Origin: Limnochordia bacterium | Lineage (GTDB): Bacteria; Bacillota; Limnochordia; DTU080 | Direction of reading: 5' to 3' | Assembly (NCBI GenBank): GCA_050951545.1 | Contig: JBMNJG010000013.1 | Location: 1-64,000, forward strand | Length of the DNA: 64,000 nt | Shown here: positions 2,462-60,217 of the stretch, one piece after another | Layout of the letters: every line of letters begins with the position of its first letter | How positions within the stretch are numbered: position 1 is the stretch's first letter | Translations under genes and position numbers: made by a program | The notes under the pieces: model-generated | The model's input: the letters and a program-made list of their open reading frames with translations, nothing else | What the model was told of the DNA's origin: nothing | The model's database searches: none

Positions 2462-3490
2462 ATGTGGCCAATGCTTTTTATGGGTACTGTGGCACCAGGT
2501 ATTGAATCGATCGCGGAGTCTGAGATTCAGGACAAGCTAGCTGGTGCTTGGATTCAGGCAACCTTCCGTGGGCGTGTCCTTTTCGGATGCACCCTTCCGT
2601 TGCAGGAGCTGCTAACGCTCAGGTGTATCGACAACCTCTATGCTCATATTGCATGGCTCTCTATTGGGCCGACGAGGGAGGACCTTAGGCAGCTACGAGA
2701 CGTACTGTCGACAATCGACCTGGCCAAGGCGCTTTCCCTATTGCCTGATATTGCCCCAAAACCGAGAGTCTATGTGAGTGCTAGTCGGGCAGGCAAACAT
2801 ACCTATAGTCGCTTTGAGGCGGCCGAGGCTGTGTTCGCAGCACTCAGGGAACAGCACGGCTTCGCGAGAGGCGATCTGAACGCCCACGATATCGCTCTGC
2901 GGCTGGACATAATCGACAGCAACGCACTTCTCTCACTCAAACTGACGCCTCCTACTTTCCGCTTTCGTGGCCACGAACGGGGTTTTTCGGCTGCAGCGTT
3001 ACGGCCGCCGGTAGCTCACGCCCTGGTATGGGCTTCTGTTCCCTGCGAAGACGACGTCTTCCTAGACCCATTCTGCGGCTCAGGTACGATTGTTGCCGAG
3101 CGTTCCATCTACAGTGCCGAGCGTCTCATGGGTAGTGATATCTCATCGGAAGCCCTGGACATAGCCAGAAGGAACGTTCCGCTGCAAGCGGAGCTCTATG
3201 ATTGGGATGCACGTAATATCAAGATGGCGTCAAGATCTGTGAGTTGTGTTGTCACCAACCCGCCATGGGGAAATCAGATCTCCGCTGGAATGGATGTGGC
3301 GGAGCTATATGGGGGTTTTCTGAAGGAGGTCAAGCGTGTGGTTGTCTCGCGCGGAAGGGTGATAGCCCTCACGGATCAGGTGAGATCATTCGAACAAGCG
3401 TGCCAGGCGCTTGATCTACCATGTGAAACGCTGTGTCATATCAGCCTGCATGGGCTGCTTCCTAGTGTCTTTGTGGTCAAACCAACGTAG
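2462..3490 (+). CDS. THUMP/UPF0020 RNA methyltransferase (Trm14/RlmL-like)
   Basis: AALRPPVAHAL, FLDPFCGSGTI SAM motif, VTNPPWG catalytic motif. Confidence 0.85.
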   Translation: MWPMLFMGTVAPGIESIAESEIQDKLAGAWIQATFRGRVLFGCTLPLQELLTLRCIDNLYAHIAWLSIGPTREDLRQLRDVLSTIDLAKALSLLPDIAPKPRVYVSASRAGKHTYSRFEAAEAVFAALREQHGFARGDLNAHDIALRLDIIDSNALLSLKLTPPTFRFRGHERGFSAAALRPPVAHALVWASVPCEDDVFLDPFCGSGTIVAERSIYSAERLMGSDISSEALDIARRNVPLQAELYDWDARNIKMASRSVSCVVTNPPWGNQISAGMDVAELYGGFLKEVKRVVVSRGRVIALTDQVRSFEQACQALDLPCETLCHISLHGLLPSVFVVKPT

Positions 3491-17664: not shown

Positions 17665-18585
17665 ATGGACGTCGACGAGTATTGCGGCCTCATACAGGAC
17701 TATCCGCGCTTCGACTTGAGTAGCAACGTCAGGGGTGAGCTATTCACCTACTCGACTGTCGATGATCCTCGACTGTCGGAGTTGCGAGATACGTATGGTT
17801 TGGGCCAAGTCGCGGGTGAAGGTGACTGCTGGAGCAAAGCGACGCGGCTTCTGAGTTGGACCTTCGAGCAGCTGTTCCACGTCGGCCGGACCATCAGTCC
17901 GGAACCGCGCGACGCGCTAAACATACTCGCCCATCGCAAAACGGGCTCCCTGTTCTGCATTCACAAATCTATCGTTCTGAATGAGGCCCTACTATCGGTC
18001 GGGCTCCCGTCGCGGCTGCTATGGTGCTACCCATACGAGTTCGATTCGGACTGCCATGTGGTGGTCCTGGTGTACGTTCCTGAGCTTGGCAAGTGGGCTG
18101 TCCTCGATCCGGCATTCAACACCTATTTTCACGGCGATGACGGCGCGCCATCATCGGTGCTAGAGGTTCGTGGAGCGTATGCTAGCGGCAGCCTGCCTGC
18201 ATTCCGGAGTATCACGATTGACAAACGATGGAAGCTCGTCATGAACGGCGTGACCTGCGAGACTTATGACCGCTTCTACCAGCTCTACATGGCCAAGAAC
18301 TGCTTCCGCTTCTCGTCGCCCGCGGATAGCCGGGTTGGCTGCAGCACTGATCTTCAAGTCCGAAGGGTGTTTCTCAACCCGAAAGGGTTTACCACGACCA
18401 ACCAGTATGACAGTAGCACTCGGGACCCAGCCTCAAACGTCTACATAACGAGTGCACTATGCCTTTTTCGCTCAACCTTGAAGGGCGTTTCGCATGCTGA
18501 GGCGAACGACCTTTCACCGCAGCGTCTGGAGGTTGCAACGGGTCGAGGGATTCATAGACCGCTGAGCGCTGCTGTGATTCCGTGA
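17665..18585 (+). CDS. Transglutaminase-like domain protein
   Basis: Cys (LFCIHKS), His (DCHVV), Asp (KWAVLDP) triad pattern. Confidence 0.75.
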   Translation: MDVDEYCGLIQDYPRFDLSSNVRGELFTYSTVDDPRLSELRDTYGLGQVAGEGDCWSKATRLLSWTFEQLFHVGRTISPEPRDALNILAHRKTGSLFCIHKSIVLNEALLSVGLPSRLLWCYPYEFDSDCHVVVLVYVPELGKWAVLDPAFNTYFHGDDGAPSSVLEVRGAYASGSLPAFRSITIDKRWKLVMNGVTCETYDRFYQLYMAKNCFRFSSPADSRVGCSTDLQVRRVFLNPKGFTTTNQYDSSTRDPASNVYITSALCLFRSTLKGVSHAEANDLSPQRLEVATGRGIHRPLSAAVIP

Positions 18586-18650
18586 GGCATGCAAGTTCCC
18601 TCCTGAAGGCACCAAGACCAGAACTTGCGGAACACTGGAGGTAAAGGTCC

Positions 18651-19169
18651 GTGTTAGGTTTGCCAAAAGGGAAGGTATTGCTGGCACCTTGGAGTTTGGA
18701 GTGGGAGAAAGAGTATGAGAATGAAAGGGATTGCATCCAATCGGCAATCGGGCCGTTTATATGTGCCATGCATCACATCGGGAGTACTGCCGTAAGGGGT
18801 TTGGCGGCAAAACCCATCATCGATATGGCTATTGAGATTCCACGCTTTGATACTGGAATACAATGCGTAGCTGGACTCGAGCGTCTAGGCTATTCCTACA
18901 AAGGTACCAACGTGCTGCCGGAGCGGCATTACTTCAGCAAGGGCAGTCCGAGGACCCATCAAATCCACATGTTCGAGGTGGGGAATCAGTATCTACTGAA
19001 GCAATTGGCCTTTCGAGATTGCCTAAGGAAAGAGGACTCGGTTCGGCAGGAGTACGAAGAGTTGAAGCGCGCGCTGGCAGAAAAGAACAGCCACGATAAG
19101 CTGGCGTATGCTGACGCAAAAACCGATTTCATAGATGCAGTGCTAGGCGAACTTGGATATAGTGTTTAA
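18651..19169 (+). CDS. GrpB/UPF0157 family protein
   Basis: HIGSTAVRGLAAKPIIDM, THQIH, AFRDCLR, YEELK, YADAKTDFI; RBS GGAGG. Confidence 0.92.
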   Translation: MLGLPKGKVLLAPWSLEWEKEYENERDCIQSAIGPFICAMHHIGSTAVRGLAAKPIIDMAIEIPRFDTGIQCVAGLERLGYSYKGTNVLPERHYFSKGSPRTHQIHMFEVGNQYLLKQLAFRDCLRKEDSVRQEYEELKRALAEKNSHDKLAYADAKTDFIDAVLGELGYSV

Positions 19170-19227
19170 CGCCTAACAGGCAGATGGATCGGCACATGGG
19201 CTGGACAGAAATGCTACACCGAATGGA

Positions 19228-19300
19228 ACGGGTGGCTCAACCCCGACAGGGTGGCTCTATTTTGGTGATCAAATGGCCTCATTCTCGATTGACAAACACA
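19228..19300 (+). mobile_element. Isolated IS21-family terminal sequence
   Basis: Repeated GTGGCTC/ATGGCCTC motifs ending ..GATTGACAAACACA, the multi-repeat CA-terminated architecture of IS21 ends; abuts the istA truncation point. Confidence 0.65.
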
Positions 19301-19529
19301 CCTCTTCGTTGGCGGCTAAGCACTCAAGGATAAGAGGCTCGACTATCTCTTGCAGAGGGGTCCGCCTGGGCTGAGCCCTTTGTCGTTCGCCGGGCAATCT
19401 CTCCCCTTCGCAGTAACGAGCGAGTGTGTCGCGGCTAATGCCCAACACACTGGCGATCCGGCGTTGCGGCATTTTGTCGACCGCGAAAAGACGCCGAATC
19501 CTGTTGTAAGTGTCCACATCAATGGTCAT
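19301..19529 (-). pseudogene. istA: IS21 transposase N-terminal fragment
   Basis: MTIDVDTYNRIRRLFAVDKMPQRRIASVLGISRDTLARYCEG is an IstA-type N-terminal HTH; truncated at 19300. Confidence 0.75.
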
Positions 19530-19545
19530 GGACTGGCACATCCTC

Positions 19546-19908
19546 TCATTTTCCCTGGGGAAAATTCGGCGTTTCCAAAAGCACTTCAAGGCGCAGGGCA
19601 AAGGCCTCCGACAGCTCCCGGATGCGGCGAACAATAGTGCATTGGCGTTGGCTCACTGCGGTGGAAGCAAGAGTCACGATTTCTTCGAGCAGGCGGCGCA
19701 ACAGGCGCGATGCCTTTTCAAGTCGTTTGTTGGTGGCGTCTTCCTCTACCGCCGGCCGCCCAAGCCTTTCGGCGTCCCTTCGGATGGCATCCAACGTGTC
19801 TTGCGGGCAAGCTAAGATCCGCTTACGCAGCTCGTCCGAAGCGCCCGATGCGTTGTACAGACTGACCAGCTTTTCAACCACAGATTTGGGGATTCGATCG
19901 GCGACCAC
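19546..19908 (-). CDS. Hypothetical helical protein immediately upstream of istA
   Basis: 120-aa ORF whose stop is followed by the istA RBS (GAGAGGA). Confidence 0.45.
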   Translation of the reverse strand: MVADRIPKSVVEKLVSLYNASGASDELRKRILACPQDTLDAIRRDAERLGRPAVEEDATNKRLEKASRLLRRLLEEIVTLASTAVSQRQCTIVRRIRELSEAFALRLEVLLETPNFPQGK

Positions 19909-20300
19909 GCGACACGCACAGGCAGGTGGTGTGCAGACGGCAGTTTGGCAATCTCTTGCGCCGTTTGGAGGGGGTGCTTCGAACGCTCACTCTTTTCCCG
20001 AGAAGAGGGTTTTCTGCATTCCGGGGGTTGGCCCCTACCGCGGCCGCGCACCATCGCGAAGAAAACAACTGCGTGCCCAACTAGATAACAGCCAGAAACA
20101 ACGAATAAATGAATCAATGGATGTCTTTGGTCGGGGCTGTGGAGTCTGTGGGCAACTCATGGAGGAGTTGTCCATCAGAATCCATGGCCCGCAGCTTGGG
20201 GTCTGGATCGATGGCAGGTTTTTGGTGAGCGCGCTGTTTTGCCGGCCTAGCTTACCGTGAGCTTTCTAGGCCATTTTGGTAGGGTCGAAGTGAAGCGTAT

Positions 20301-20897
20301 CCAACCCGGTGAACGGCTGGGCGCTGGACATGGGGAAAGACCATCGATGGCGTCGCGTTATGTGCAGTCCACTGGTCGGGGTGCGGCTTTTGAGGTGGGG
20401 AAACAGCGATTTGGGGGGCAGATCCGCCGTTTTCGTGGGTTGAGTCCGCCGAAAGTGGTCCGAGAGGGCGCCATCGCTGCGCATTGACCACGTTTGTCGG
20501 CTCCAGGGCTCCAGGGTCATCTGTCGCCGCCCGCCGCCTCCCGCCCCGCCCACCCGATGGACGGCTGGGCCTGGACATGGGAAAGCCATCGATGGCGTCG
20601 CGTTATTACAGTCCGCTGGTCGGGGGGCGGCTTTTGAGGTGGGGAAACAGCGCATGCCGTCCCTGGGGGGCAAATCCGCCGTCTCAGCCCACCCGATGGA
20701 CGGCTGGGCGCTGGACATGGGAAAGCCATCGATGGCGTCGCGTTATTACAGTCCGCTGGTCGGGGGCGGCTTTTGAGGTGGGGAAACAGCGATTTGGGGG
20801 GCAAATCGCCGTTTTCGTGGGTTGCGTCCGCCGAAGGTGGTCCGAGAGGGCGCCATCGCTGCGCATTGACCACGTTTGTCGGCTCCAGGGGTCCAGG
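20301..20897. repeat. Array of three long imperfect tandem repeats (A 20301-20515, B 20548-20682, C 20687-20897)
   Basis: Shared blocks ACGGCTGGGC.CTGGACATGGG, CCATCGATGGCGTCGCGTTAT, GGCTTTTGAGGTGGGGAAACAGCG; A and C also share a ~95-bp tail ending GGCTCCAGGG. Confidence 0.95.
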
Positions 20898-20999
20898 TGG
20901 TGCCAGCGTGTCGCCTTATGATGTACAAAGGAGCGCGACTTGCCCGCTCAGCCCACCCACCGGGTGACTAGGCCGCTTGACACAGGGAAGGAACGGTGA

Positions 21000-21021
21000 T
21001 GCTATCCGGTTATGTGCTGTG
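21000..21021. repeat. Direct repeat flanking HTH-nuclease gene 1 (downstream copy)
   Basis: TGCTATCCGGTTATGTGCTGTG vs TGTTGTCCGGTTATATGCTGTG at 22309-22330 (19/22). Confidence 0.75.
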
Positions 21022-21135
21022 TGAAGCAGGACTGAAGGGTTACCAGAGCGTGGAACGACGTTTCTAGACGCTCCTACTCCTAGGTGAGGAGACGCATCTT
21101 CAGTGGTTTCGCCTCAGCGAAGGGGGCCCCGCGGA

Positions 21136-22191
21136 CTAAGCTTGTGGTGTTTCCGTAGATCCACTGGGCGCCCAGCCGTGCTTGGCCTGCTCGCGGTACC
21201 GCCGGCACCTGGGCTTGAGAAGCCGGAACAGCTTCCGGTTGATGCGTACGTCGCGCCGCAGCGGCAGTCGTCTGCCAATCTTCTTCTTGATCGTCTCCCA
21301 CGAGAGCTCGCGGGACTGGATCACGATCAACTCTATGTCCTCCTCGGCACAGGTCTGCTCCTTTGTCTGGTCACGCTTCTGCTGCTCAAGCACTTGCTCA
21401 GCTGAGTAGAGCTTCGTGACACCGTAGTGTTGCGGACCATTAAACTCGAAGGCCGTATAATGAAGATAGTAGAAGAGATCCAACTCCAGCCTCTGACCGG
21501 TGTCGGGGTTCTCCAGGAAAGGGGGGCGGATGCGGGGCGTGTAATGCTGAGAGTCCACAAGAGCAGTGCAGATGCCTGTCATAAGTGCTTCCCCGTAATA
21601 CTCAGCCGTGTCGAGTTTGTGCTGTATGCGCCACACTTCTTCGCTGTGCTTCTTATCGATCGGGTTGAGGAGGGTAAAGCGAATCACGGCCTGTTTGTGT
21701 GGCTGCTCCATCTCGAGCCAGCTCAGTTTGGCTAATCGCCGCACCGCATGTTTTACGGTCTGAGGGCTCAGATGCATCAGCTCGGCGAGCTCAGAGTATT
21801 TGAACTGCCGCAGACGATACTCCGGATCGTCTTTGCCTACAAGTACTGCATAGACGACTTTGGCCTGGGGGTTGAGTTGGGTGGCCATGATCAGCTCGAC
21901 CGGAATCTGAAGCCAGCCAGGGGGCAACCACTGCTCTGATAGTTTATTCATGAGCCGAACGGTTGCCAAAACAAACCGCTCCTCGCTGAGCAGTCTGGCC
22001 ACAGCCTTGCGAACGGTCGATCGCGACATGCCCGTGCGCCGTGCCAGGCGGCTGGGCGAATAGAGAAACGCCTCGTCCAAATGAGCATCCATAGCCAAGG
22101 CCATCCAGACCACTTTTTCGCTAGCTCTCAAATCGCCAGCGCAAAGTATCGAATCAGGCACACGCGCTTCATCTATATGCAGGGAATACAA
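21136..22191 (-). CDS. Tandem winged-HTH + C-terminal PD-(D/E)XK/DUF559-like endonuclease (paralog 1)
   Basis: RBS GAGGTGA + TTG 22191; two HTH repeats (SPSRLARRTGMSRSTVRKAVARL; YSELAELMHLSPQTVKHAVRRL); nuclease motif LELDLFY..AFEFNGPQHY..QQKRDQTK. Confidence 0.8.
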   Translation of the reverse strand: MYSLHIDEARVPDSILCAGDLRASEKVVWMALAMDAHLDEAFLYSPSRLARRTGMSRSTVRKAVARLLSEERFVLATVRLMNKLSEQWLPPGWLQIPVELIMATQLNPQAKVVYAVLVGKDDPEYRLRQFKYSELAELMHLSPQTVKHAVRRLAKLSWLEMEQPHKQAVIRFTLLNPIDKKHSEEVWRIQHKLDTAEYYGEALMTGICTALVDSQHYTPRIRPPFLENPDTGQRLELDLFYYLHYTAFEFNGPQHYGVTKLYSAEQVLEQQKRDQTKEQTCAEEDIELIVIQSRELSWETIKKKIGRRLPLRRDVRINRKLFRLLKPRCRRYREQAKHGWAPSGSTETPQA

Positions 22192-22212
22192 GAAACTCAC
22201 CTCACATAACCT

Positions 22213-22226
22213 GGAACACATGTTCG
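22213..22226. promoter_or_regulatory. LexA/DinR (SOS) box
   Basis: CGAACATGTGTTCC on the minus strand = GAAC-N4-GTTC, ~10 bp upstream of the RBS. Confidence 0.75.
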
Positions 22227-22308
22227 CCCCGTTGTGACTTCTTTCTACCCGACCAAGCAGGATCCTGCCTTCTCGTGCAAAAAAGCTAACTTCACCAAAT
22301 ATCGACAT

Positions 22309-22330
22309 TGTTGTCCGGTTATATGCTGTG
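22309..22330. repeat. Direct repeat flanking HTH-nuclease gene 1 (upstream copy)
   Basis: Matches 21000-21021. Confidence 0.75.
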
Positions 22331-22436
22331 CGCCAGTCCATGCCGAAAACATCGTTCGTCCTGTTGTGCTCGGCCGAAAGAGTGGGCCATCCGCAAATAC
22401 CCCTGCAACCCATAGGCCGGAACGGGAGACATCGCT

Positions 22437-23130
22437 GTGCATGAAACTGAGCGAGACTATGAGCGACTAGCTGCACGTTTCTGGAACCTACCGCAAAAGG
22501 GCGAAGAAGAAGCCCGACGCGAGCAGTTTTTTATGGACGACATCATCCAGAAGGCTCACCTTGACCGCGAGGTGGAACGGTTAGTAGGCGGAGTCGACAC
22601 CGCTTTTGACGGCGGCGCGGGAGTTGGCCAAGGAAGCTGGAGTTGAAGACAGAATGAGTCCCAAGCATACGCAGTTGCTCACTGAGCTCGTTCGGATAGC
22701 TAGGAAAGCGGTGGTTGTGAGTGTGTCAAGTTGTCTAGGGAGCTTGCCGTACTTTCTCAACCCTATACAGAAACAGCACTACATTATGGATGAAGGTACG
22801 AGTGATCCCCTAGTTCACTGGTACGTACGCAACGAAACCAAGCAGCTTGAGGCATGGAGGCCTGACTTCGAAGCCATGAGCAATTTCCTTGTGACGGGGT
22901 TACCGAATGACCCGGACGAACTCTATGAGCGCATGGAGCTTGGCGAGGCTCCGTGGCCAATTCATTACTGCTTTCTGCCAGACGAGATCAGATCGGTATT
23001 GGAGACTGCTGGATTGAGAGACGTCAAGCTTTCAGGACCGGGTGCGTTAGCCAGATCCATTCCTCGGGAGATTCTGCAGAGGCTTCTTCTAACTCCCGAA
23101 TACCGAAAGCGCTTCCTCGACCAGGTCTGA
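22437..23130 (+). pseudogene. Class I SAM methyltransferase, frameshifted and internally deleted
   Basis: AFDGGAGVG motif I in one frame; LTELVRIARKAV..EIRSVLETAGL in the next; motifs II-IV largely missing. Confidence 0.6.
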
Positions 23131-23235
23131 CAAGCGCATTTCGCGGACGGAGTGGTAGGTTGGCGCCACTGGTAGCAGGTGAGTGTGTTGTCACTGATGC
23201 GCATGGCCGTTGGGCCGACAATGGAATGGGGCGAC

Positions 23236-23772
23236 ATGATAGTGGGTCAGCATGACTTGGTAACAGATCGTCTACTTCTTCGGCAACCCGTCGCTGGTGA
23301 TGCTGAAGCGATCTATGGCGGATACGCAAGCGATCCTGAAGTCACCAGGTATCTGCAGTGGTCCCCCCTTACCGGAATTACGGCTGCTCTTCGGTTCATC
23401 CAGGGCTGCGAAGAGAGGCGTGCCTCCGGAACGGAATTCACTTGGGCCATCACGATGAAGAGTTCCAGCGGAGTAATCGGTGTAGTGCATTGCAGCCCTC
23501 GAGGACACAAAGCGGAACTGGGCTACGCACTTGCGCGTTCGTACTGGGGACAGGGATACATGACCGAGGCGGCGCAGGCCGTCATGGACTGGCTCTTCAC
23601 ATCGCCCAAGATACACCGTGTATGGGCAACCTGCGATGTTGAGAACGTTGGATCGGTACGAGTGCTAGAAAAGCTGGGGATGACTCGAGAAGGGACGCTC
23701 AGGCGATGGGCTGTTCAGCCAAACATCTCTGCAGAGCCCAGGGACTCCTTCATGTACGCCAGGGTTCGGTAG
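23236..23772 (+). CDS. RimJ/RimL-type GNAT acetyltransferase
   Basis: TDRLLLR, ELGYALARSYWGQGYMTEA, NVGSVRVLEKLGM. Confidence 0.93.
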   Translation: MIVGQHDLVTDRLLLRQPVAGDAEAIYGGYASDPEVTRYLQWSPLTGITAALRFIQGCEERRASGTEFTWAITMKSSSGVIGVVHCSPRGHKAELGYALARSYWGQGYMTEAAQAVMDWLFTSPKIHRVWATCDVENVGSVRVLEKLGMTREGTLRRWAVQPNISAEPRDSFMYARVR

Positions 23773-24026
23773 AGAGGGTTGGCGGTCTGCTCCTCGTGTT
23801 GGGGAAACGCGGGCCCAGCGGCGCATTCACCGGACGGGTGCTCAGTTGATATCTTGGCCGCCACCGGTAATGCGCAGAGTCGTTCGCCGAATACGGGCCT
23901 TCGGCCCGACGGACAGAGACCGACTCCTTCTCCAAGCGACAGACGATCCCGCGTTCGGTGTACCCTGGATGAGCCCACCTGTTGTGGGTACAGGCAGTGC
24001 TCTTCCCAAAAGAAAGGGGCTACGGA

Positions 24027-27580: not shown

Positions 27581-28170
27581 CAGACACCTTCCCTTGCGTT
27601 ACTGCTCGTTCTGTGCAGCTTCTCAGCTTCCTTCGATCAGTACCAGATTACTCCCTCGGCGGCGTAACACCTGCGTGGCTATCGCCAAATCGATGCTGCC
27701 GCAGTAGGTACAGCACCCGTATCGGTTCCAGAGGGCTAGCCTTCGGTGAGGGAGCTCAGTGACGCAAGAACGTTGGGCGGGTAGAAGAGATGCGTCAATC
27801 AGACCCACGGTCTACGGAGAAAGGCAGTGAGATGTCCGACGCTTGGGACCTCACCGCGCTGCGGATTCCGCCTTTGCACAGGCGGTGGATGACGCTCACA
27901 CCATGGGCCAGTTGCGCCTTGCGTTGACCATGGCGATGACGCGACGCCGTCCTTTGGGTCGGCTAGGGATTGTGTAGGTCCTCGCCAGTTGGCGCGGCAA
28001 ACCGTGTCGGGTTCGATCGTTTCTGGTGCTCCAGACGACGAACCGGAGTGACCAGCGCCGCCTTTTCACGGCCAAGCGGGGCTGTGGGGCGTGAAAGCGG
28101 GACATGAGACGCGGTTTCAGTCAGAACCATTAATCGAAACTGCCCTTTCTTTCCACCTCCCTGGCATCAG

Positions 28171-52797: not shown

Positions 52798-55083
52798 CTA
52801 TCTGACGATTACCTCATACCAGAGCGTGCGATAGTCAGGGCCGATGGCAAAGGCACTGCCTGTGTCGGTGTTACGCACTGGCACCTCTGTCATCCGCTCC
52901 CCATTCTCACGGAGAGCATAGACCTGTACCCGATCGGCAGAGGTCGTCAGCTCTACATCCGCTGGAATACCTTCAACCCGAACAGGTGACGCCCCCCAGG
53001 AACCATGAATAGTCGCCCGCGTACCTGTCAGTGGAGTTAGCAGCATCCCTGTGTTCTCGCTGTAGCCTGTGGCCGTGAGCAAGGCCCTGAACGGACCAGC
53101 GAAGCTCTCACCGTCATGCAATGTGAGCGTGATGGTAGACCACCCATCAAGTCGGGTGTTACCCGGCTCAATCGTCACCTCATGCAGGTCGAAGCATCTG
53201 CCAGCTCCGTAACCGACGACTGCCTTGGAGCGAGAGGTGTCAATGGTAACCACACCTCGATCGGTCTGCGTACGATCCCACATCAGCTCCTCCGTATCCG
53301 TCACATGGCGGAGGCCAGAAGAGCTGGGGATCTTCGCTGTGACACCGGGAGTGATCGCGTCAAGCGTCCGGGTCATGCGATACCGCAGGGGGAGTGTCGT
53401 CGGGACACCCCTGGACCAGGCGTTGTAGTTGGTACCCATGTTGGTTTTCCGTTCGGCCATCAGGCTTTTCTGCGTAGCATCGGTTAAGGGAATCTGCACG
53501 ACATCTACCCCCGGCTGCACATCACCACGCAGTAGCATAGCTGTCGCCGCGGGCAGAGTCGCTTGCTTTACCGTATGACCTTTGATATTGAAGTAGTTCG
53601 TGATCCGCATGGGCCAGTAATCCCGCGACAGACTCCAGTCGAAGACGGTGATGCCGTCCCAGTCTTGGAAAGCTCCATATGCACAGGCCAGCACAAAGGC
53701 CTCGGAACCGTAGCTGTTAGGCGCCGGATGATTGTACTCCGACAGAGTGAAAGGTTTGCCCTCGACACGCAAGCGTGCTGCCATGGACAGCGGTCCGCCT
53801 CCATCGTGGTTGACCAGTGAGCGGTTTTCCACATAGAAGGAGCTCCACTGGTTGGAGGAAGAGGGAGTGGTAGTCTGCGGATGAGCCCAGTACATGTGGG
53901 CGTCGACGTAGTCGAGCTGTGCTTGGATACTGGGCGGACTAAGAGTGATCTGGGTCCCGGCTACTAGGTTCTTGGCACCCAGCTCTTCCTTAATAAACTG
54001 GTACATGCCGGTGAAGAAGGCCTGCTCCGTATCCCAGATGAAGTCAACATAATCACTTTGACAAATTGGCGTGCGTTGGCCTGCTTCAGTCCAGATGAGG
54101 CGCCTTACTCCAATCTCCAGACTCTCGCCTTCGGGCAGTCCGACTAAGCCTCTAGCTGGTGCGGAGCTGTCACCCCAGGCTGCCCGCAGTGCTGCGGTTG
54201 TGCCGTATTTCCTGGCCAGCCAAGCGGTCCATTGCTGTTCGAGCGGTGCCACGAGATCATCGGGTGTCTTGTCAAGCTCCCCACGGTTCCAGGTGTAGAA
54301 CAGGCCGTCTTCGTTATTCAGCTCAACCTGGACTAGAGAAGGCTCTTCCGCGTAGCGATGGCCAGTGTACGGGTTGCGATGGGTAAGCAACTCCCTGATG
54401 TGCTCCCTATGCAGTACGGCTACATCGGGGTGGAATATGTCTAGACCGCGGTCAGAACCTGGCCGTTTGTCGGACAGAGGGAACCCTTCCTGCGGCTGCA
54501 CGGTGCGAGATGTCTTCAGGTTGAAATTGACATAGATCCCGTTCTTCTTGAGTTGGGCAACGAAGTAGTCGAGGTTGTCTAGTTGGTCAGGGTCGATGCG
54601 GCGGGGAAACACTCCGGCCTGGAAAAGGCCATCAGGAGCTTCATAGCGCTCGATATTGTGAAAACGTACCAGGTTGATACCGAAACGGGCCAACTGAAGG
54701 GCCAGTTTCTCGGCATCGGCGTGGGACGGAAACGCCGCGTTATAGCAGAAATTGACGCCGAAAAAGCGGATGCGCTTGCCGTCGCCAGTGTAGAAACTCC
54801 CCTCATGCGCTGTGATGAAGCCTGCTTTACCAGCTGGCTTGTCGAGCAGGTGGGAAAAGTTAGTTACGTTGTCGGGGAAGAGATCGCCCTGAGAGACTGT
54901 GAAGGGAAACAACGGTGCGAAGCCCTGCTCGGCAGCATTCACCGGACCAGCGATGCCCAGCAGAGCAGCAACAAACGTACAGATGAGCCATGCCCCTCCA
55001 ATCAGGGTCGGCAGCCGTGCGTCGTCGCGATGGATGATCGTAGTGGGGGTTGGGCGCCCATGCGCCGTCGTTGTGTCAGCCAT
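52798..55083 (-). CDS. Secreted clan GH-A (GH5-like) glycoside hydrolase
   Basis: RFFGVN, GINLVRFH, LDYFVAQLKKNGIY, ELNNE acid/base, KPFTLSEY nucleophile. Confidence 0.8.
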   Translation of the reverse strand: MADTTTAHGRPTPTTIIHRDDARLPTLIGGAWLICTFVAALLGIAGPVNAAEQGFAPLFPFTVSQGDLFPDNVTNFSHLLDKPAGKAGFITAHEGSFYTGDGKRIRFFGVNFCYNAAFPSHADAEKLALQLARFGINLVRFHNIERYEAPDGLFQAGVFPRRIDPDQLDNLDYFVAQLKKNGIYVNFNLKTSRTVQPQEGFPLSDKRPGSDRGLDIFHPDVAVLHREHIRELLTHRNPYTGHRYAEEPSLVQVELNNEDGLFYTWNRGELDKTPDDLVAPLEQQWTAWLARKYGTTAALRAAWGDSSAPARGLVGLPEGESLEIGVRRLIWTEAGQRTPICQSDYVDFIWDTEQAFFTGMYQFIKEELGAKNLVAGTQITLSPPSIQAQLDYVDAHMYWAHPQTTTPSSSNQWSSFYVENRSLVNHDGGGPLSMAARLRVEGKPFTLSEYNHPAPNSYGSEAFVLACAYGAFQDWDGITVFDWSLSRDYWPMRITNYFNIKGHTVKQATLPAATAMLLRGDVQPGVDVVQIPLTDATQKSLMAERKTNMGTNYNAWSRGVPTTLPLRYRMTRTLDAITPGVTAKIPSSSGLRHVTDTEELMWDRTQTDRGVVTIDTSRSKAVVGYGAGRCFDLHEVTIEPGNTRLDGWSTITLTLHDGESFAGPFRALLTATGYSENTGMLLTPLTGTRATIHGSWGASPVRVEGIPADVELTTSADRVQVYALRENGERMTEVPVRNTDTGSAFAIGPDYRTLWYEVIVR

Positions 55084-55115
55084 GGTGTAAGCTCCCTTCG
55101 CGCGTCTATGCCGAA

Positions 55116-55559
55116 TCACTGGTCTCGCTGCTGTTCCAGATATGCGTTAACATGTTGGGCGAATTCAACAAAATCGTCGAGTTGTTCCGTAAGTACGCGG
55201 TGCACCTCTCTCAGATCGACTGCGGTGTATTCGTGGACAAGGATGTTCCGAAAGCCTGCCATCGGCGCCATCCGTTCGGCGAATGCCTTGGGCAGAATAC
55301 CCAATGGGGCCAGGGCTGAGATATTGTCGCGATATCGATCGGGAACTGGGCCCCCGAGCGAGGCTACACAGTGCGACGCCACATCCAGCACTGACTGAAC
55401 GCAGAGTTGCAGGCCGTGCTGGACCGCCCAGTACACTTTTGGACTGGCCGCCAGTTCATCCAGCGTCATTCCTCGGTACTCCCTGAGCACCTGCACGGCA
55501 TCAATCAGGTACGTCAAGCGCCGCTCAATCACGCCGCGGTCAGGCATGGCCCCGGTCAT
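55116..55559 (-). CDS. HepT-like DUF86/HEPN ribonuclease toxin
   Basis: GFRNILVHEY (R-x4-H); overlaps the upstream antitoxin stop. Confidence 0.9.
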   Translation of the reverse strand: MTGAMPDRGVIERRLTYLIDAVQVLREYRGMTLDELAASPKVYWAVQHGLQLCVQSVLDVASHCVASLGGPVPDRYRDNISALAPLGILPKAFAERMAPMAGFRNILVHEYTAVDLREVHRVLTEQLDDFVEFAQHVNAYLEQQRDQ

Positions 55560-56029
55560 GGCTGTTCACCTCGTCTCGGCCGCAGGGCGGCCAGTTGTCG
55601 TTGCAGACGGGCGGCTTGAAGGTTGCGCAGTGGTCGGGTATCCTCGTACTCTTGGAAGGCCCTAATGGTGAACTCCGCAATCACTTCCATATTGACAGCG
55701 TAGAGAACATGCCCGTCGCGAACCACGCGATGCAAAAGCAGCGGTGGTGCGCCGTTCAGGATGACCACGTCAACGTCGGGGCGTTCCCATATGCTCATCA
55801 TGTCCAAAACGAGTTGTGGGCGGTTTACTCGGGCTTCCACCCCGCCTCGGGTGAGAAGAACGCCCAGGTCGAGGTCGCTATCAGGACGTGCCTCGCCCCG
55901 GGCCAGCGAACCAAAAAGGAATACTGCCGCGATCTCAGGCCGTTGAGAGAAGTACCTTCTCAGTTGTGTCATTTTTCCGGTGGAAAACACGGCCTCGGGT
56001 GCACCTCCTAGCCCTCGCCTCTTCGGCAT
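55556..56029 (-). CDS. MntA-like minimal nucleotidyltransferase antitoxin
   Basis: FLFGSLARGEARPDSDLDLGV (GS-x10-DxD), VDVVILN; start uncertain. Confidence 0.88.
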   Translation of the reverse strand: MPKRRGLGGAPEAVFSTGKMTQLRRYFSQRPEIAAVFLFGSLARGEARPDSDLDLGVLLTRGGVEARVNRPQLVLDMMSIWERPDVDVVILNGAPPLLLHRVVRDGHVLYAVNMEVIAEFTIRAFQEYEDTRPLRNLQAARLQRQLAALRPRRGEQP

Positions 56030-56313
56030 GACGCCCGTGCTGTCTTATTCTGGCCCCCGCCTCACTCGTGACCTCACTGTGATTCGTTCTCTGTTGACAG
56101 TCACTCTTCCTTGGCGGCGTGTTCTCGAAAAACCCACGACAGTCAGCTCTCCTGCCTGAGGGCCGAGGACGAGTATGAAAATGGTGACTCGTGGCCACAG
56201 GGTAGTCTTTCCCTCGTAGATCAGGTACAGTTGGCACATGATTCGCGTTCCACGCGTGGAGGTTGAGACGTGGGCGAACAAGCAGTCCCTGTAACCTAGG
56301 CCCGTACGCAAAC

Positions 56314-56620
56314 GGGCGATCTCACCAGTTTGGCCTCCATCAGTCCCGGACCCGGCTGGTGAGTCGGGGCCCGGGGCCGGTTACATTGCCCAAATCGGCA
56401 AGAAGAGGGTGATGCTCACTGGTTTCACTTCCGTCAGTCCCGGACCCGGCTGGTGAGTCGGGGCCCGGGGTCGGTTACATTGCCCAAATCGGCAAGAAGG
56501 GGGCGATGCTCACTGGTTTCACTTCCATCAGTCCCGGACCCTGCTGGTGAGTCGGGGCCCGGGCCGGTTACATCACCCAAATCGGCAAGAAGTGGGCGAT
56601 GCTCCAGTTTCATCTTCGAT
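56314..56620. repeat. Tandem array of three ~94-bp structured repeats plus a partial fourth
   Basis: Units start at 56321, 56415, 56509, 56602; core CAGTCCCGGACCC.GCTGGTGAGTCGGGGCCCGGG..CGGTTACAT..CCCAAATCGGCAAGAAG. Confidence 0.95.
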
Positions 56621-56889
56621 CACAGGAGGCCGACCAGGCGACGAGGCGGGTTCTGGGCAGGGCAAGATGGCTATTGGGCGGAACATTGTGATTTCGAGGC
56701 GGTTACAGCCGGAAGCGGGGCGCCCGTTGGCGCACCACTGGTCTGCTATTGTCACGACTTGTGCCGAGGGCACCTGGCGAGGGCATAGGGGCACCCGCTC
56801 TAGCGAGCGGCAGCGAGAGGTTGCTGAAACCCCTACTGTGAAGGGGGACAGATGATTCGAGGCTATGGCGCACTCTTGGCCGTCGTTGG

Positions 56890-57918
56890 CTACTCGCTGG
56901 CGGCATCACTGGCGGGCGCCCAGCCACCCTTAGCCGTCTCGCGGTAGAAGCGGCTCCTCAGATCGAGGTACCTGAGGAGTTTCTTGTTAAGGTCGCTTCG
57001 CAACGGCAGCAGTTGGCCAGCCTTGAACTTCATGGTGAGCCAGGACAGGTCCTTGGCATGGATCACAACCAACGTGACGTTGTTCTTCTCACACAATTCA
57101 CGCTTGGTCTTGTCACGTTCCATCTGCTTGGCGACCACGTCAGCCGAGAACCGTTTGGTAGGGGTGTAGTGCTGTGGCCCGTTAAACTCAAAAGCCACCG
57201 CCTCGAGGTCATAGTGGCGGTCGAGCTCCAGTAACATGCCAGTAGCCGGGTTGACTAGAAAACGGGGAGACGCGTTGTCTTTGTGGTCATCGGAGTCGAA
57301 AATAGCCGATAGGTATTCCTGCATCAAGGCCTGTCCGAAGAACTCAGCCTCGTCGAGTCGCTGCTGCGCCGCTAGCAGTTCATCCATGTACCTGCGGGCG
57401 ACCGGGTTGCAGAGGCTGAAGCAAATGGGAGCCTGCTTGTGCTCTTGCTGCATCTCCAGCCAGCCCAGCTTGGCCAGTTGTCGAGCAGCCCGCTTGACCG
57501 TCTTGGCACCTAGACTCATCATCCGAGCCACAGACGCATATGTGAACACGCCCTGCAAATTACGGTAATCCGGCGTGGCCTGCAGTGCACCATAGACCAC
57601 CTTGGCCTGAGCACTGACTTCGGTGGCGATGATCAGCTCAGTAGGCATGACCACTCTTGGCCCCGACAGCTCTTTTGCTGGGGCCTGGTTGACGCCTGTG
57701 GGCAGACTGTACCAGCCCTTAGTGGTTAGCTTTGCCGTAGCCTTGCGGACGGTGGGTCGGGACAAACCGGTACGAGCAGCCAGGCGAGTGGGCGATAGAC
57801 GAGCTCGCTCCCCCAACTCAGCGTCGAGTGTGAGGGCCAGCCAGACTACCTTATCCGTCGCTCTTAACTGGCTAGTGAGCAGCAACGAGATCGGCACGCG
57901 AACCTCTTCGATATCCAA
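56890..57918 (-). CDS. Tandem winged-HTH + PD-(D/E)XK/DUF559-like endonuclease (paralog 2)
   Basis: RBS GGAGGTGG + TTG 57918; HTH repeats SPTRLAARTGLSRPTVRKA and YASVARMMSLGAKTVKRAARQL; LELDRHY..AFEFNGPQHY..QMERDKTK; colinear with 21136-22191. Confidence 0.82.
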   Translation of the reverse strand: MDIEEVRVPISLLLTSQLRATDKVVWLALTLDAELGERARLSPTRLAARTGLSRPTVRKATAKLTTKGWYSLPTGVNQAPAKELSGPRVVMPTELIIATEVSAQAKVVYGALQATPDYRNLQGVFTYASVARMMSLGAKTVKRAARQLAKLGWLEMQQEHKQAPICFSLCNPVARRYMDELLAAQQRLDEAEFFGQALMQEYLSAIFDSDDHKDNASPRFLVNPATGMLLELDRHYDLEAVAFEFNGPQHYTPTKRFSADVVAKQMERDKTKRELCEKNNVTLVVIHAKDLSWLTMKFKAGQLLPLRSDLNKKLLRYLDLRSRFYRETAKGGWAPASDAASE

Positions 57919-57935
57919 GGGCGCCACCTCCAGCC

Positions 57936-57968
57936 AGAATGTCTGTTCGGGTCCCGAATACATGTTCG
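57936..57968. promoter_or_regulatory. Two adjacent LexA/DinR-like boxes
   Basis: Minus strand CGAACATGTATTCG (57955-57968) and CGAACAGACATTCT (57936-57949), directly upstream of the RBS. Confidence 0.68.
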
Positions 57969-58159
57969 GCACACTCCGGTAGAGTTCCTCCATCAAAAGG
58001 TCGATTCAGACAAGACCAGAGGCGGCGTGCACCCAGCTCTTCAAAGCGAGGCGCGCTGATGCACGCGTTTTCCGGTCGTGATGGGTCGCATCTGGGTAGG
58101 ACAGTGCTAGCCCGCCGCGGTGACCAGTGCCGTCCTGCCAAGGTAGACCAGTGCACACA

Positions 58160-58209
58160 CCAGTTACATCACCCGATTCGGCAAGAAGCGGTCGATGATC
58201 ACTGATCTC
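58160..58209. repeat. Degenerate half-copy of the 94-bp unit upstream of paralog 2
   Basis: CCAGTTACATCACCCGATTCGGCAAGAAGCGGTCGATGATCACTG vs array CCGGTTACATCACCCAAATCGGCAAGAAGTGGGCGATGCTC. Confidence 0.85.
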
Positions 58210-58550
58210 GTGGGCCCACATGGGCACGATGTTGATCGGAGATGCCAGCGGCCTTCAGTTGTCATCCGGAGAAGATGCCTGCGACTTCTCTCGGTGTTTG
58301 CCGTTCGTGACAAGGTGGCTTCTTGCGCGTAGGGTGCAAACACCGACCGCCGTTGCCTCGACTTCTGTGTGTCGTTGGCCGCCCACATGCCTATTGCCCA
58401 GGGTACCGAGACTTGACGCAGGCCCGTGAGCCGAGTCTGAGCATCGGGTTGTATGGTATAGTAGATCGAGATGGTAGCGGTTGATGGGGGAGTGCTGTGT
58501 ACACAGATTATGTCGAATGTGACCGCTAAATACGTGGAGAGGCCGATCAC

Positions 58551-58934
58551 TTGTTGTCTGCACTCGGGCTACATGGGATCCTATCACATTACGGTTTCCC
58601 CCGGGTGACAGGCAGCTACGCGCTGAGGCTGATGACCTGGAGAGACTTGGATATACCTCGTGAGCGATCAGATGTCGGTCTTGTCGTTCTTTGGCTTGGT
58701 GGTCGCCTGGTGGAATGCCTATCCCCAGTGAGGATGCACTACAGGAACGAACGCCTGGCGAGGACGCAGGGCCTGCCGAACGGGCTGTATTGCGGGATCT
58801 ACCTTGGAGACGAGCGGGCAGGAGCGTGGAAGATCGGTATACGGGCGGTGGACTCGAGGGAGTGTGATCGTCTCACAGCGTTCATCGATTCGATAGCGGG
58901 CCGTCTTACACCCAAGTTACGACATCGAATTTAG
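58551..58934 (+). pseudogene. Nucleotidyltransferase-like gene remnant
   Basis: VTGSYALRLMTWRDLDI motif; no clear start; short. Confidence 0.55.
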
Positions 58935-58946
58935 GAGGCCGTACCA

Positions 58947-59633
58947 ATGGCAAACGCCAGTTTCTCTCAGGTAATGGGTAGCATCCAGGGGGCGTTTGAC
59001 TCAGTTCTGCAGCCTAAGGGTTTTCAGGCGCATGAGTATACGTATAACCGGGGCATGGAGGATGGCCTCATCCAGGTGGTCGACATTCAGCTATACCCGT
59101 CGAAGCTTCCGTATCCTGGTTGGGAGAAGTATCGTGCTCGGTTCACGATCAACTTGGGCGTCTATGTTCCCGAGGTAGGTGAGCACTACAGTGCTACCCT
59201 GGCGCAGACCCCGTGGGTTAAGGAGAGCGGCTTAGTTGTAGCACCGCTGGAGCCTTGGGTGCTTGACATCCAGTGCGCTCTGCGGGAACGGATTGGCCAC
59301 GTATCAGAGGATGCTAAAGACATCTGGTGGCCCCTCCGTGAAGACGAGATGATTATCGAGGATGCTCTTTATTACCTTCAGACCTACGGGATTCCCTTTG
59401 TTGAGCACTGGTCCAGTCGAGACAGGATACTGGAGAACTGGGATGAGAACACAGCTAGAGGCATGAACCTGGCACCCAATGTTGTGAAAGCGATCATCTT
59501 GTCAGAAAGGGGCGACATGGAGTCTGCTCGGGTACTGCTGGCGGAGCATGTGCACGAGCTGGATAGTCCGGATTCCGAACACTTTTTTCGGAGGCTCGCC
59601 AAGAGACTGGGGATTTGGAGGCTAGACGGCTAA
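58947..59633 (+). CDS. DUF4304-like hypothetical protein
   Basis: RBS AGGAGG; LQPKGF, IQVVDIQ, FTINLGVY, RERIG, DIWW. Confidence 0.7.
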   Translation: MANASFSQVMGSIQGAFDSVLQPKGFQAHEYTYNRGMEDGLIQVVDIQLYPSKLPYPGWEKYRARFTINLGVYVPEVGEHYSATLAQTPWVKESGLVVAPLEPWVLDIQCALRERIGHVSEDAKDIWWPLREDEMIIEDALYYLQTYGIPFVEHWSSRDRILENWDENTARGMNLAPNVVKAIILSERGDMESARVLLAEHVHELDSPDSEHFFRRLAKRLGIWRLDG

Positions 59634-60217
59634 CAAGCTGCCCGCCATGTCACAGGAGGCTATTCGCATACTGGTCTCGAGCTAGCGCCTGGGGTGCTGG
59701 TTGAGGACGCGACAGTGGCCTTGCCCTCATCTGCATGTTAAGCGAAGCGCGTCTTTGATGAGATGCCATCTATATAATAGACAAAACACGTCGATACTAG
59801 TCGGAGGATTCTAGATGGAGTCATCGAAGGAAACTGAGAAGTGATTACCAGGTTTTAATTAGACTCGTTCTCGCGGGGCACATACCATCCGGACTATTTC
59901 GTACAGAATCGGCCGCGGTGAATGCACAAACTGGGCCCGATCCTAAGGCGGTCGAGGAGGTGCGAACTGGTCTGAGGACGGAGGTGAACGCTGCGCGATG
60001 GGAACTCGCCCCTCAGATGCCACAGAGGCTCTCCAGGTGGCGATCGATTCGGGGGTATGGCGCCGCATCGTTTTGTGGTAATAGCTAGGAAAGACGAATA
60101 TCGCGCACACAGGAGTCGGTCTTTGCCGCCCAGGACGTAAGAAACTCTGTTATTCGCAGCTATGGTTCTACCATTCGCATGCACTTCGCATGATCGGGAA
60201 ATAGACAAGAGGGAGAG

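Follow-up and report, generated by a model that had tools for sequence, protein, structure and literature searches.

Classical insertion sequences (IS), MITEs and mobile insertion cassettes are characterized by terminal inverted repeats and target duplications and, to our knowledge, all well-studied bacterial transposons use a handful of enzyme classes. TnsA of Tn7 cuts the 5' ends only and needs the DDE protein TnsB. The iterons of Rep initiators are roughly 20 bp long. The prototype of the EDxHD/Vsr-like homing endonucleases, I-Bth0305I (PDB 3r3p), has been described as possessing an N-terminal DNA-binding region and a C-terminal nuclease with the Vsr fold (PMC3239194).

In the present study, a window of 64,000 nt from a Limnochordia bacterium (contig JBMNJG010000013.1, assembly GCA_050951545.1) was analysed, together with the rest of its genome (3.64 Mb; assembly completeness 94%); the organism is found in bioreactors and digesters. 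The locus flagged by the original prediction, locus 1, is a damaged, truncated subfamily A copy of a multicopy selfish DNA element of ~2-4 kb. The element resembles the EDxHD enzymes in domain order, fold (3r3p), matches to PHROG families and selfish, patchy spread. Unlike those enzymes, which carry NUMOD motifs, its protein has two HTH_36 winged helices; its gene lies outside any intron, intein or single homing site and occurs in 28 copies at unrelated sites; and it is accompanied by cognate tandem arrays and, in one subfamily, by inverted repeats and 9-bp duplications.

The inverted repeats, 9-bp duplications, multiple copies, deletion derivatives and nesting with other ISs are features shared with classical ISs. 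In contrast to these, the element encodes no DDE, HUH, serine, tyrosine or Cas1 enzyme, its only ORF being a predicted PD-(D/E)xK nuclease, and has long tandem arrays in its interior, with a LexA-type box within one of its ends. TnsA is likewise a PD-(D/E)xK nuclease used in transposition, whereas the element has neither a TnsB partner nor a second gene, the domain order differs and the fold match is weak (1t0f_A, Z 6.6, 111 residues aligned). With the Rep initiators Pi of R6K and RepE of F the element shares a tandem winged-helix module and direct repeats beside the gene; it differs from them in its repeat units of 94-405 nt with a 9-nt core, its chromosomal and multicopy state, its fused nuclease and its lack of plasmid relatives. 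Literature searches retrieved no named system with this layout, in agreement with the original prediction. What is new here are the inverted-repeat ends and 9-bp duplications of subfamily B and the LexA-type box within the right inverted repeat.

Organization of the element copies in the window

The features of the window that bear on the element are as follows.

19239..20303, no strand assigned: remnant of an IS21-family element, adjoining the array at 20303/20304 and lying outside the nuclease element
20304..20897, minus strand: tandem array of subfamily A, made up of two full units (~105 + 105 nt) plus a short one
21000..21021, minus strand: downstream direct-repeat motif, with its core ACATAACC at 21008-21015, kept in 4 of 4 subfamily A copies
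21136..22191, minus strand: nuclease gene, 351 aa, with winged helices at about residues 8-177 and a predicted Vsr-like PD-(D/E)xK domain at about residues 195-310
22189..22225, minus strand: start region, comprising a TTG start, the RBS GAGGTGA, the core motif in inverted orientation at 22204-22211 and a LexA-type box
22309..22338, minus strand: upstream direct-repeat motif, with its core ATATAACC at 22317-22324
27899..28162, plus strand: detached fragment, 87% identical over 265 nt to the subfamily A array-to-terminal-repeat segment
56310..58204, minus strand: locus 2, a subfamily C copy consisting of array, gene and left-end motif

The gene with its two HTH modules and ELD..AFEFNGPQHY..RD..K region, and the LexA box at the RBS, were found where they had been predicted. 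The array (about 20301-20897), described beforehand as three tandem repeats ~240 bp past the stop, contains a ~105-nt core three times, twice together with an extension of ~105 nt, and ends 239 nt past the stop codon; TRF gave it no score because its units are uneven. The number of units in the subfamily A array varies between copies and between metagenome populations, and unit-number joints were seen in Logan contigs (runs X2 and X7). The 22-bp direct repeats, one on each side of the gene (21000-21021 and 22309-22330), are 86% identical; they are not element ends, each being an example of a core motif that is found again in all units of the arrays. Homology with the other subfamily A copies stops at 22330-22338.

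Repeat X (19300-20303) had been considered as a part of the element and was rejected, since it is the end of an IS21-family element. A complete copy of the latter lies on contig C14, where the N-terminus of a 501-aa ORF closely matches the window ORF 19269-19634 and a further ORF follows. The IS21 name rests on a reading of the sequence, and the IS21 transposase model gave weak, HTH-level matches only to the nuclease protein.

In other subfamily A copies the segment between the array and the terminal repeat measures ~400 nt. The window copy lacks both terminal inverted repeats of its complete relatives and still encodes an intact protein; having lost its ends, it is probably immobile on its own. 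The idea of a self-contained, damage-inducible unit consequently holds in part: the element is mobile, probably damage-inducible and equipped with cognate repeats, whereas the window copy is not self-contained, its ends being missing and an IS21 element adjoining it. When region 18500-24000 was compared with Logan contigs of three DNA runs and one RNA run, the contigs broke at the repeat edges and no joint skipping the element was seen. The RNA run yielded three short contigs, of which one (214 nt) lies inside the gene; this is too little for a claim of expression, and DNA carry-over is possible.

The recurrence of the layout at 56.3-58.2 kb, with a clearly diverged paralog, was borne out. At locus 2, the array (56314-56604; 94 nt x 3.1) is accompanied by a gene (56890-57996) whose protein is 48% identical to that of locus 1, the likely start being the ATG at 57963 within the box CGAACATGTATTCG (57955-57968), and by a unit-like left-end motif at 58162-58199. 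A search for the empty site, in which window 54000-60500 was compared with two same-genus genomes, gave a single 185-nt match whose divergence (77% identity) made it uninformative.

A four-subfamily family in the source genome

From 34 tblastn matches, 28 loci of the family gene were delineated in the genome, so that the gene is not single-copy, and they fall into four subfamilies (A, n=4; B, n=15; C, n=7; D, n=2, in the tally of LexA boxes) with 45-55% protein identity between subfamilies and an array type of its own in each. The block at 20304-22338 is found again on three other contigs at 94-97% identity, and the four subfamily A proteins are 98.6-100% identical; the recurrence of the locus 1 layout is far beyond chance. 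Repeated DNA, counted as sequence occurring at least three times in the genome, amounts to 126 kb and consists mostly of elements of the nuclease-gene family. The left flanks of 10 subfamily B copies are mutually unrelated. Comparison between copies gave dN/dS values of 0.17 in both B (66 pairs) and C (3 pairs), 0.25 in A (3 pairs) and 0.08 in D (1 pair), revealing purifying selection on the nuclease gene in all subfamilies (0.08-0.25). The element is mobile and exists in many copies, and selection maintains its protein. A search of a plasmid collection for relatives gave no match, and PADLOC returned only HTH-level matches and no relevant defence family.

Domain architecture of the encoded protein

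Two HTH_36 matches (Pfam E 8.5e-11) were identified in the locus 1 protein. The N-terminal half is matched by phrog_270, a phage replication initiation protein (E 8.5e-11), and by fold resembles the Pi initiator (2nra_C, Z 8.3, 170 aligned) and RepE (1rep), which agrees with the likeness to phage replication initiators proposed earlier. A resemblance of the C-terminal region to Vsr/DUF559-like nucleases of homing-type elements had also been proposed, and was recovered by fold in matches to Vsr (1cw0_A, Z 8.3, 105 aligned), to the DUF559-type structure 3hrl_A (Z 7.8) and to I-Bth0305I (3r3p_B, Z 7.6-7.7, 93/98 residues), all of these Z-scores (7.6-8.3) being middling. The homing type was indicated by PHROG 9084, 'homing endonuclease' (E 1e-9 to 2e-8), and by PHROGs annotated 'intron encoded nuclease'. 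The full-length model had a pLDDT of 85.5 and the C-terminal-only model 88.6; Foldseek on both returned nothing at E <= 0.001, its N-terminal matches to initiators having TM 0.45-0.48 on the target. No RNase H fold was present in the protein model, and a sequence-profile search of the PDB gave only HTH regulators.

Among 77 family members Lys277 is invariant, and Asp238, Glu249, Gly252, Gln254, His255, Arg273 and Asp274 are each at least 90% conserved. The conserved catalytic residues of the EDxHD enzymes are E, D, H and D, to be compared with D238, E249, H255, D274 and K277 here. Taken with the models, these data point to a tandem winged-helix DNA-binding module joined to a PD-(D/E)xK domain of the Vsr/DUF559/I-Bth0305I type, and hence to a predicted sequence-specific nuclease.

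The core motif and the repeat arrays

A 9-nt core, A[CT][AG]TAACC, is present on both sides of the gene and in the array units. Inside elements, 102 occurrences lie on the gene strand and 2 on the other, out of 334 genome-wide on both strands, and direct copies flank the gene in every subfamily. An array adjoins its cognate gene at 4 of 5 A loci, at all seven C loci and at all 15 B gene loci, as well as in ~9 decayed B remnants; A and C carry it on the side of the gene opposite to that in B. Gene-less arrays had been entertained as intact 'empty' homing targets, a view that was rejected because they derive from subfamily B by deletion or by IS disruption. Whole array units are conserved, including the stretches between motifs. 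In this the arrays are unlike those of CRISPR or other guide-RNA systems, as they have no variable spacers, and Rfam gave no match; the suggestion of array-derived guide RNAs is not supported.

LexA-type boxes at the promoter and in the right end

The locus 1 box, GAACATGTGTTC (22214-22225), lies 23-34 nt upstream of the start codon, is of the Cheo type and conforms to the operator sequence CGAAC-N4-GTTCG. The lexA promoter of the genome bears CGAACTTTTGTTCG and a stretch beginning GGCGAACATGTGT, which equals the element box over 13 nt. The promoter box is perfect in 4/4 A and 2/2 D copies and has one mismatch in 15/15 B and 6/7 C copies, having been lost from the broken C copy C6_141671. Ten copies contain a further perfect box, 23 nt inside the right inverted repeat; at the IRR-like end of one subfamily A copy (contig C7) the arms of the box are kept and the central 4 nt differ. 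Perfect GAAC-N4-GTTC boxes are not enriched genome-wide (63 found, 51 expected), and the elements hold 17 of the 63; the argument is instead drawn from their position, their conservation across subfamilies and their likeness to the lexA operator. On these sequence features the element is probably damage-inducible.

Terminal inverted repeats and target duplications in subfamily B

The largest subfamily, B, shows the footprints of true transposition. Complete B elements have imperfect terminal inverted repeats with no other gene inside. The left repeat (IRL) is GGGGCCACGCAAAAAACTGCGG and the reverse complement of the right repeat (IRR) is GGGTGCACACGTGAAATCGCGG; both begin with GGG, and 11-15 of 22 positions match between them across the five copies bearing target duplications. 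Perfect 9-bp duplications occur at five of the eight two-ended B loci (ACCATACGG, AGCTGCTTG, CACGCCCGA, ACCTTCCCT and TTCGCGAAG); among the others, one gene-deleted derivative matches at 8 of 9 positions and two have no duplication. IS-type ends with a duplication of fixed length were found in B only: each subfamily A copy has at best one recognisable end, and the seven C copies have no inverted-repeat ends within 2 mismatches and no target duplication. The transposase family search covered DDE_Tnp_1 (PF01609), and no match to it lies inside any element. The ends are not shared with the three complete ISs, the 824-bp repeat or the C3 repeat segments, the termini of which are unrelated.

Occurrence in other genomes

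The family was detected in 14 of 41 related genomes, where it is patchy, multicopy and often broken, with in-frame stops (17 matches in genome G004 and 13 in G009), and was absent from both same-genus genomes searched. The co-occurrence of box and array that had been expected of homologs holds in the source genome and is not universal: among 40 distant loci, a perfect box was found at 3 and an array close to the gene at ~5. Of 30 distant loci, one (L068; 336 nt, 94%) had clear flanking direct repeats, in a test blind to 22-bp motifs. Ten copies from G009 are too old to define ends, as only the gene and, in some pairs, an upstream repeat are conserved, at 70-84% identity. A scan of 96 loci of other genomes for inverted repeats with duplications yielded as many candidates (17) as a reversed-sequence control (17), and therefore no end signal outside the source genome. 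The inverted-repeat consensus had no match in five related genomes and the IRR pattern none in metagenome contigs; the subfamily B protein was found there on one 1.7-kb contig from which the flanks are absent. The empty-site alleles that had been looked for in relatives were not recovered from the same-genus genomes or from Logan contigs.

A proposed mechanism and its alternatives

The reading that we favour, at a probability of about 0.5, is a transposable element that is gated by the SOS response and uses a non-DDE nuclease for its movement. LexA would silence the gene, and perhaps the right end too, until DNA damage occurs; after damage, the winged helices would attach to the core motif, to the ends or to both, and the inverted motif copy beside the RBS could provide autoregulation. 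The nuclease would break the element ends and make a 9-nt staggered break at the target, and the insertion would be finished by host repair, for which fill-in and end-joining are at hand, since the genome has a Ku gene. The arrays may represent multiplied binding or cleavage sites that grow and shrink by unequal recombination or break repair. No transposon known to us depends for its movement solely on a PD-(D/E)xK nuclease; the joining of strands would fall to the host. This counts against the reading, as do the restriction of ends and duplications to B, the two two-ended B loci without duplication, the lack of an end signal in other genomes and the middling fold scores. At an assembly completeness of 94%, a transposase acting in trans could have been missed. 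The wider proposal, that of a new class of prokaryotic transposon in which a winged-helix plus Vsr-like nuclease acts as transposase, moves by cutting and host end-joining/fill-in with 9-bp duplications and is tied to the SOS response by LexA operators, is tentative, and our doubts about it outweigh our confidence.

A different explanation is that a homing-endonuclease-like cassette, with its own recognition motif at its flanks, settled in a non-autonomous inverted-repeat carrier (a MITE or mobile insertion cassette) that is moved by a conventional transposase in trans, and spread between carriers by break-induced gene conversion. The closest relatives of the nuclease domain, by sequence and by fold, are indeed of the homing type, and the direct motif copies that flank the gene in every subfamily suit such a cassette; against this, no transposase is present in any element with these inverted repeats, and the gene, under purifying selection in every subfamily, persists inside the mobile unit. 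Also in its favour are the gene-plus-array block, the orientation of which relative to the IRL-like and IRR-like ends is opposite in A and B, the right arm of B, which is modular and contains an IRL-like sequence, and the lack of inverted repeats in C. Against it, each of the 10 right ends of this type belongs to a B element or to a deletion derivative of one, none being found in an independent gene-less family, and the 'orphan' arrays are decayed B copies. A 1695-bp IS family of this genome also makes 9-bp duplications, but its termini are unrelated to those of the element. On balance we consider this explanation unlikely.

Homing or recombination alone is a still weaker candidate, and to us an improbable one. 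Here, A, C and D copies would arise where the nuclease breaks motif-like sites and an existing copy serves as the repair template, or from integration of an excised circle via the direct repeats, and the inverted repeats of B would be a lineage-specific addition. In its favour, subfamily C is bounded by direct and not inverted repeats; the right end of three C copies repeats the motif and ~85 nt resembling the leader behind the left motif, and two C copies share their position relative to the similar, tRNA-containing flanks that lie downstream of them. The C flanks are otherwise unrelated, so that homology for homing is not available. The different array side in A and C as compared with B is what a circle cut open at varying places would give, yet neither circle junctions nor empty sites were seen in the same-genus genomes or Logan contigs, and the element encodes no recombinase.

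A repeated host function (an iteron-type module for replication or partition, a regulator induced by damage or a defence nuclease) or an array-RNA-guided nuclease, brought to mind by the initiator-like N-terminal half, the arrays beside the gene and the LexA box, is disfavoured and highly improbable given that 28 copies occupy unrelated sites and that decay products and target duplications occur, and given the array units without variable spacers, the lack of plasmid relatives, of a relevant defence-family match and of an Rfam family, and the absence from the two same-genus genomes searched.

Implications

If the SOS-gated transposable element is real, a unit of ~28 copies that encodes only a restriction-like nuclease would represent either a new mobility mechanism or a new partnership between a homing nuclease and a transposon; in both cases, homing endonucleases would be linked to transposons. 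With a LexA operator placed in a transposon end, transposition would be directly coupled to DNA damage. The compact protein, which would read a 9-nt core, and the four diverged protein-and-repeat pairs within one genome would offer a ready system for the study of sequence-specific nucleases.

Locus 1 and locus 2 in the window

The layout that the original prediction had described at locus 1, the subfamily A copy of the element at 20304-22338, was borne out: the ORF, two HTH modules, the box (a LexA-type GAAC-N4-GTTC palindrome), the 22-bp repeats, the array and a diverged paralogue with its own array (locus 2, a subfamily C copy at 56310-58204) are all present. Scanning the window with Rfam at gathering thresholds gave zero matches.

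Features of the window
21136-22191, minus strand: locus 1 gene, 351 aa, TTG start behind the RBS GAGGTGA
22214-22225: perfect GAAC-N4-GTTC palindrome
21000-21021 and 22309-22330: 22-bp direct repeat, 86% identity between copies
20301-20897: uneven tandem array of locus 1
56890-57996: locus 2 paralogue gene, 48% identical to the locus 1 protein
56314-56604: locus 2 array, 94-nt x 3.1
19239-20303: repeated element abutting the locus 1 array
27899-28162: detached fragment of a ~400-nt segment missing from the A copy of the window

Homology of locus 1 to the other A copies ends at 22330-22338, giving way to unique DNA; at the opposite edge, the array meets the end of the abutting element at 20303/20304. 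Further copies of the latter (98-99% identity among copies) lie at C14:2152-4505, C7:70981-71323 and C11:344586-344818 of this genome (G000; C numbers denote contigs), and C14 carries the full copy, with a 501-aa ORF, which begins like the window ORF 19269-19634, and a second ORF. Judged by its sequence, this element is a member of the IS21 family. Its end was seen repeatedly in or beside nuclease-element arrays, of subfamily A in the window and of subfamily B on both C7 and C11, and it may have a target preference for them.

Two neighboring features were recorded by eye. Overlapping ORFs of 69 and 174 aa (22437-23130), starting ~100 nt from the edge of the element, look like a single frameshifted SAM-methyltransferase-like gene with a DGGAGVG motif, and two overlapping minus-strand ORFs of 147 and 157 aa beside locus 2 (55116-56029) look like a HEPN/DUF86 and nucleotidyltransferase toxin-antitoxin pair. 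ARAGORN called a 96-nt tRNA-Ile(GAT) at 3325-3420, ~20 nt above the usual length. Elsewhere, C4:141547-147253 holds a tandem run of four paralogues, each a secreted solute-binding-like protein of ~425 aa.

Four subfamilies in one genome

The assembly (3.64 Mb, 16 contigs, 93.9% complete), in which the window is contig C13, yielded 34 tblastn matches, which resolved into 28 gene loci of four subfamilies and three short fragments. Protein identity is 98-100% inside subfamilies, whereas it is 45-55% across them, and each subfamily has its own array type.

Subfamilies of the element (dN/dS is pairwise, restricted to equal-length pairs)
A: 4 loci, those on C8 and C9 having common flanks and being one duplicated region; array units of ~250-262 nt, downstream of the gene; dN/dS 0.25 (3 pairs)
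B: 15 loci, 2 broken; array units of ~405 nt x 2.1-5.7, upstream of the gene; dN/dS 0.17 (66 pairs)
C: 7 loci, 1 broken; 94-nt array units x 2.1-4.6, downstream of the gene; dN/dS 0.17 (3 pairs)
D: 2 loci; dN/dS 0.08 (1 pair)

The arrays almost exclusively adjoin their cognate gene, and gene-less B arrays are deletion derivatives or IS-disrupted copies. Sequence with two or more other copies totals 126 kb in this genome, and the elements account for most of it.

A core motif, A[CT][AG]TAACC, occurs as direct copies on both sides of the gene in A, B and C, and each array unit contains one core, or ACATAACG in the A units. Inside elements, 102 cores were counted on the strand of the gene versus 2 on the opposite strand; the genome-wide count on both strands is 334. 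Since the core is found around the genes and once per array unit, the 22-bp repeat is one instance of this motif and was rejected as the end of the element. In subfamily A, a single inverted core lies between the box and the RBS.

Element ends and target duplications

The left terminus of 10 B copies is GGGGCCACGCAAAAAACTGCGGTAATC..., preceded by unrelated DNA, and the right terminus is ...CCGCGATTTCACGTGTGCACCC. These termini (IRL and IRR) are imperfect inverted repeats with GGG at both starts, matching at 11-15 of 22 positions in the five copies scored. Directly outside them, perfect 9-bp direct duplications were present at five of the eight B loci having both ends and absent at two; in the gene-deleted derivative on C12 the duplication matches at 8 of 9 positions. 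The only Ku gene of the genome (C3:133716-134384) starts ~150 nt outside the IRL of a B copy.

The B right arm is modular. In several copies it contains both a second, inner end and a module of ~300-440 nt with a short ORF behind an RBS; in one such module of ~300 nt (C11:347134-347441) a 19-codon ORF follows AGGAGGAG, and near the end of the module an outward ATG reads through the inverted repeat and overlaps the LexA-type box. Right ends of this type number 10, all of them inside B elements or their derivatives.

Among the A copies, the one on C7 carries two such ends: an IRR-like one, 383 nt upstream of the gene, and an IRL-like one past the ~400-nt segment on the far side of the array. An IRL-like end is present in the C8/C9 copy, and locus 1 has neither IRL nor IRR. 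Upstream of the C8/C9 IRL-like end (C9:78675-79200; likewise C8) we noted GAGCCGTATGCGAGGTCCGCACGTACGGTTC, which by eye resembles group II intron domain V, suggesting an intron insertion in this left arm. The subfamily C copies examined had no B-type inverted repeats or duplications. Their left end is one unit-like motif, which three copies repeat, with ~85 nt, at the right end.

A predicted nuclease domain joined to an initiator-like N-terminus

Pfam identified two HTH_36 modules in the 351-aa protein and gave no match to its C-terminal third. AlphaFold2 models reached pLDDT 85.5 (full length, 11 sequences) and 88.6 (C-terminal 168 residues, 40 sequences). Compared with 48,161 chains using VIA-align, residues 3-177 matched the Pi initiator on iteron DNA at a middling Z of 8.3 (170 aligned). 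The C-terminal domain gave similarly middling matches to Vsr (Z 8.3, rmsd 3.2, 105 aligned), the DUF559-type protein 3hrl_A (Z 7.8) and I-Bth0305I (Z 7.6, 93/98 residues), and also matched RAP-domain proteins and TnsA (Z 6.6). Foldseek returned no match at E <= 0.001, its weak list again consisting of PD-(D/E)xK nucleases.

Sequence evidence agrees with these fold matches. In PHROGs, the N-terminal half hit 'replication initiation protein' (E 8.5e-11), and the C-terminal domain hit 'homing endonuclease' and 'intron encoded nuclease' (E down to 1e-9). The tblastn hits in nuclease genes of large phages (Bacillus, Enterococcus, Staphylococcus) were confined to residues 167-313, and 30 of 77 members weakly matched DUF2726. 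K277 never varies among the 77 members, and conservation reaches at least 90% at D238, E249, G252, Q254, H255, Q270, R273 and D274.

Predicted link to the SOS response

Upstream of lexA lie CGAACTTTTGTTCG, CGAACAGGCGTTCC and GGCGAACATGTGTGTTAC, the last matching the box of subfamily A exactly over 13 nt. The promoter box is perfect in all four A and both D copies and has one mismatch in all 15 B and six of seven C copies, overlapping the probable ATG start in C. Ten copies have an extra perfect box, located 23 nt inside the right inverted repeat; in the A copy on C7, the IRR-like end keeps the arms of the box and differs in the central four bases. These elements hold 17 of the 63 perfect boxes in the genome, a total showing no enrichment over the 51 expected. 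LexA is predicted to bind these boxes, although their true ligand could instead be the winged helices of the element itself.

Distribution of the family

A profile search of 1.84 billion representatives produced 361 clusters at E <= 1e-30, most of them full length. The family was found in 14 of 41 related genomes, often as many copies and with in-frame stops, and was not found in two same-genus genomes, both fragmented assemblies. Homologues occur in named records whose labels are Limnochordia, Symbiobacteriaceae, Thermaerobacter and other Bacillota MAGs.

Perfect upstream boxes were seen at 3 of 40 distant loci (28-38% identity; all three from one MAG) and 2 of 11 loci from relatives, and arrays near the gene at ~5 of 40 and 1-2 of 11, respectively. 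Boxes and arrays being only sporadic in distant loci, half of what was to count against the original prediction was therefore found for the protein family at large, though not for the lineages of this genome.

Organism and element were detected in at least 15 runs from bioreactor, digester and landfill. In three of those runs contig depth over the gene was ~4x that of the flanks, and joints had arrays differing in unit number.

Mode of spread

An autonomous, SOS-gated transposon is the reading we prefer, at a probability of about one half: the nuclease of the element would make the breaks, and host repair would complete insertion, a Ku gene being present in the genome. The main rival, which we regard as rather unlikely, is a homing-type cassette carried in an inverted-repeat element that is mobilised in trans. 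No termini shared with the elements were found among three complete ISs, an 824-bp repeat and the C3 repeat segments, and all 14 matches to PF01609, the single transposase family searched in the 93.9% complete assembly, lie outside the elements. One of these repeat families is a 1695-bp IS with a 525-aa ORF and termini GTGTGTGTAAGATG... (C2:219040-220734, C9:24088-25782, C16:149380-151074), each of its three copies being flanked by a perfect 9-bp target duplication.

An abstract-level literature search found no published description of such an element. Its copy number, decay products, patchy distribution and target duplications give good support for its being selfish and mobile; subfamilies A, C and D may spread by other routes.
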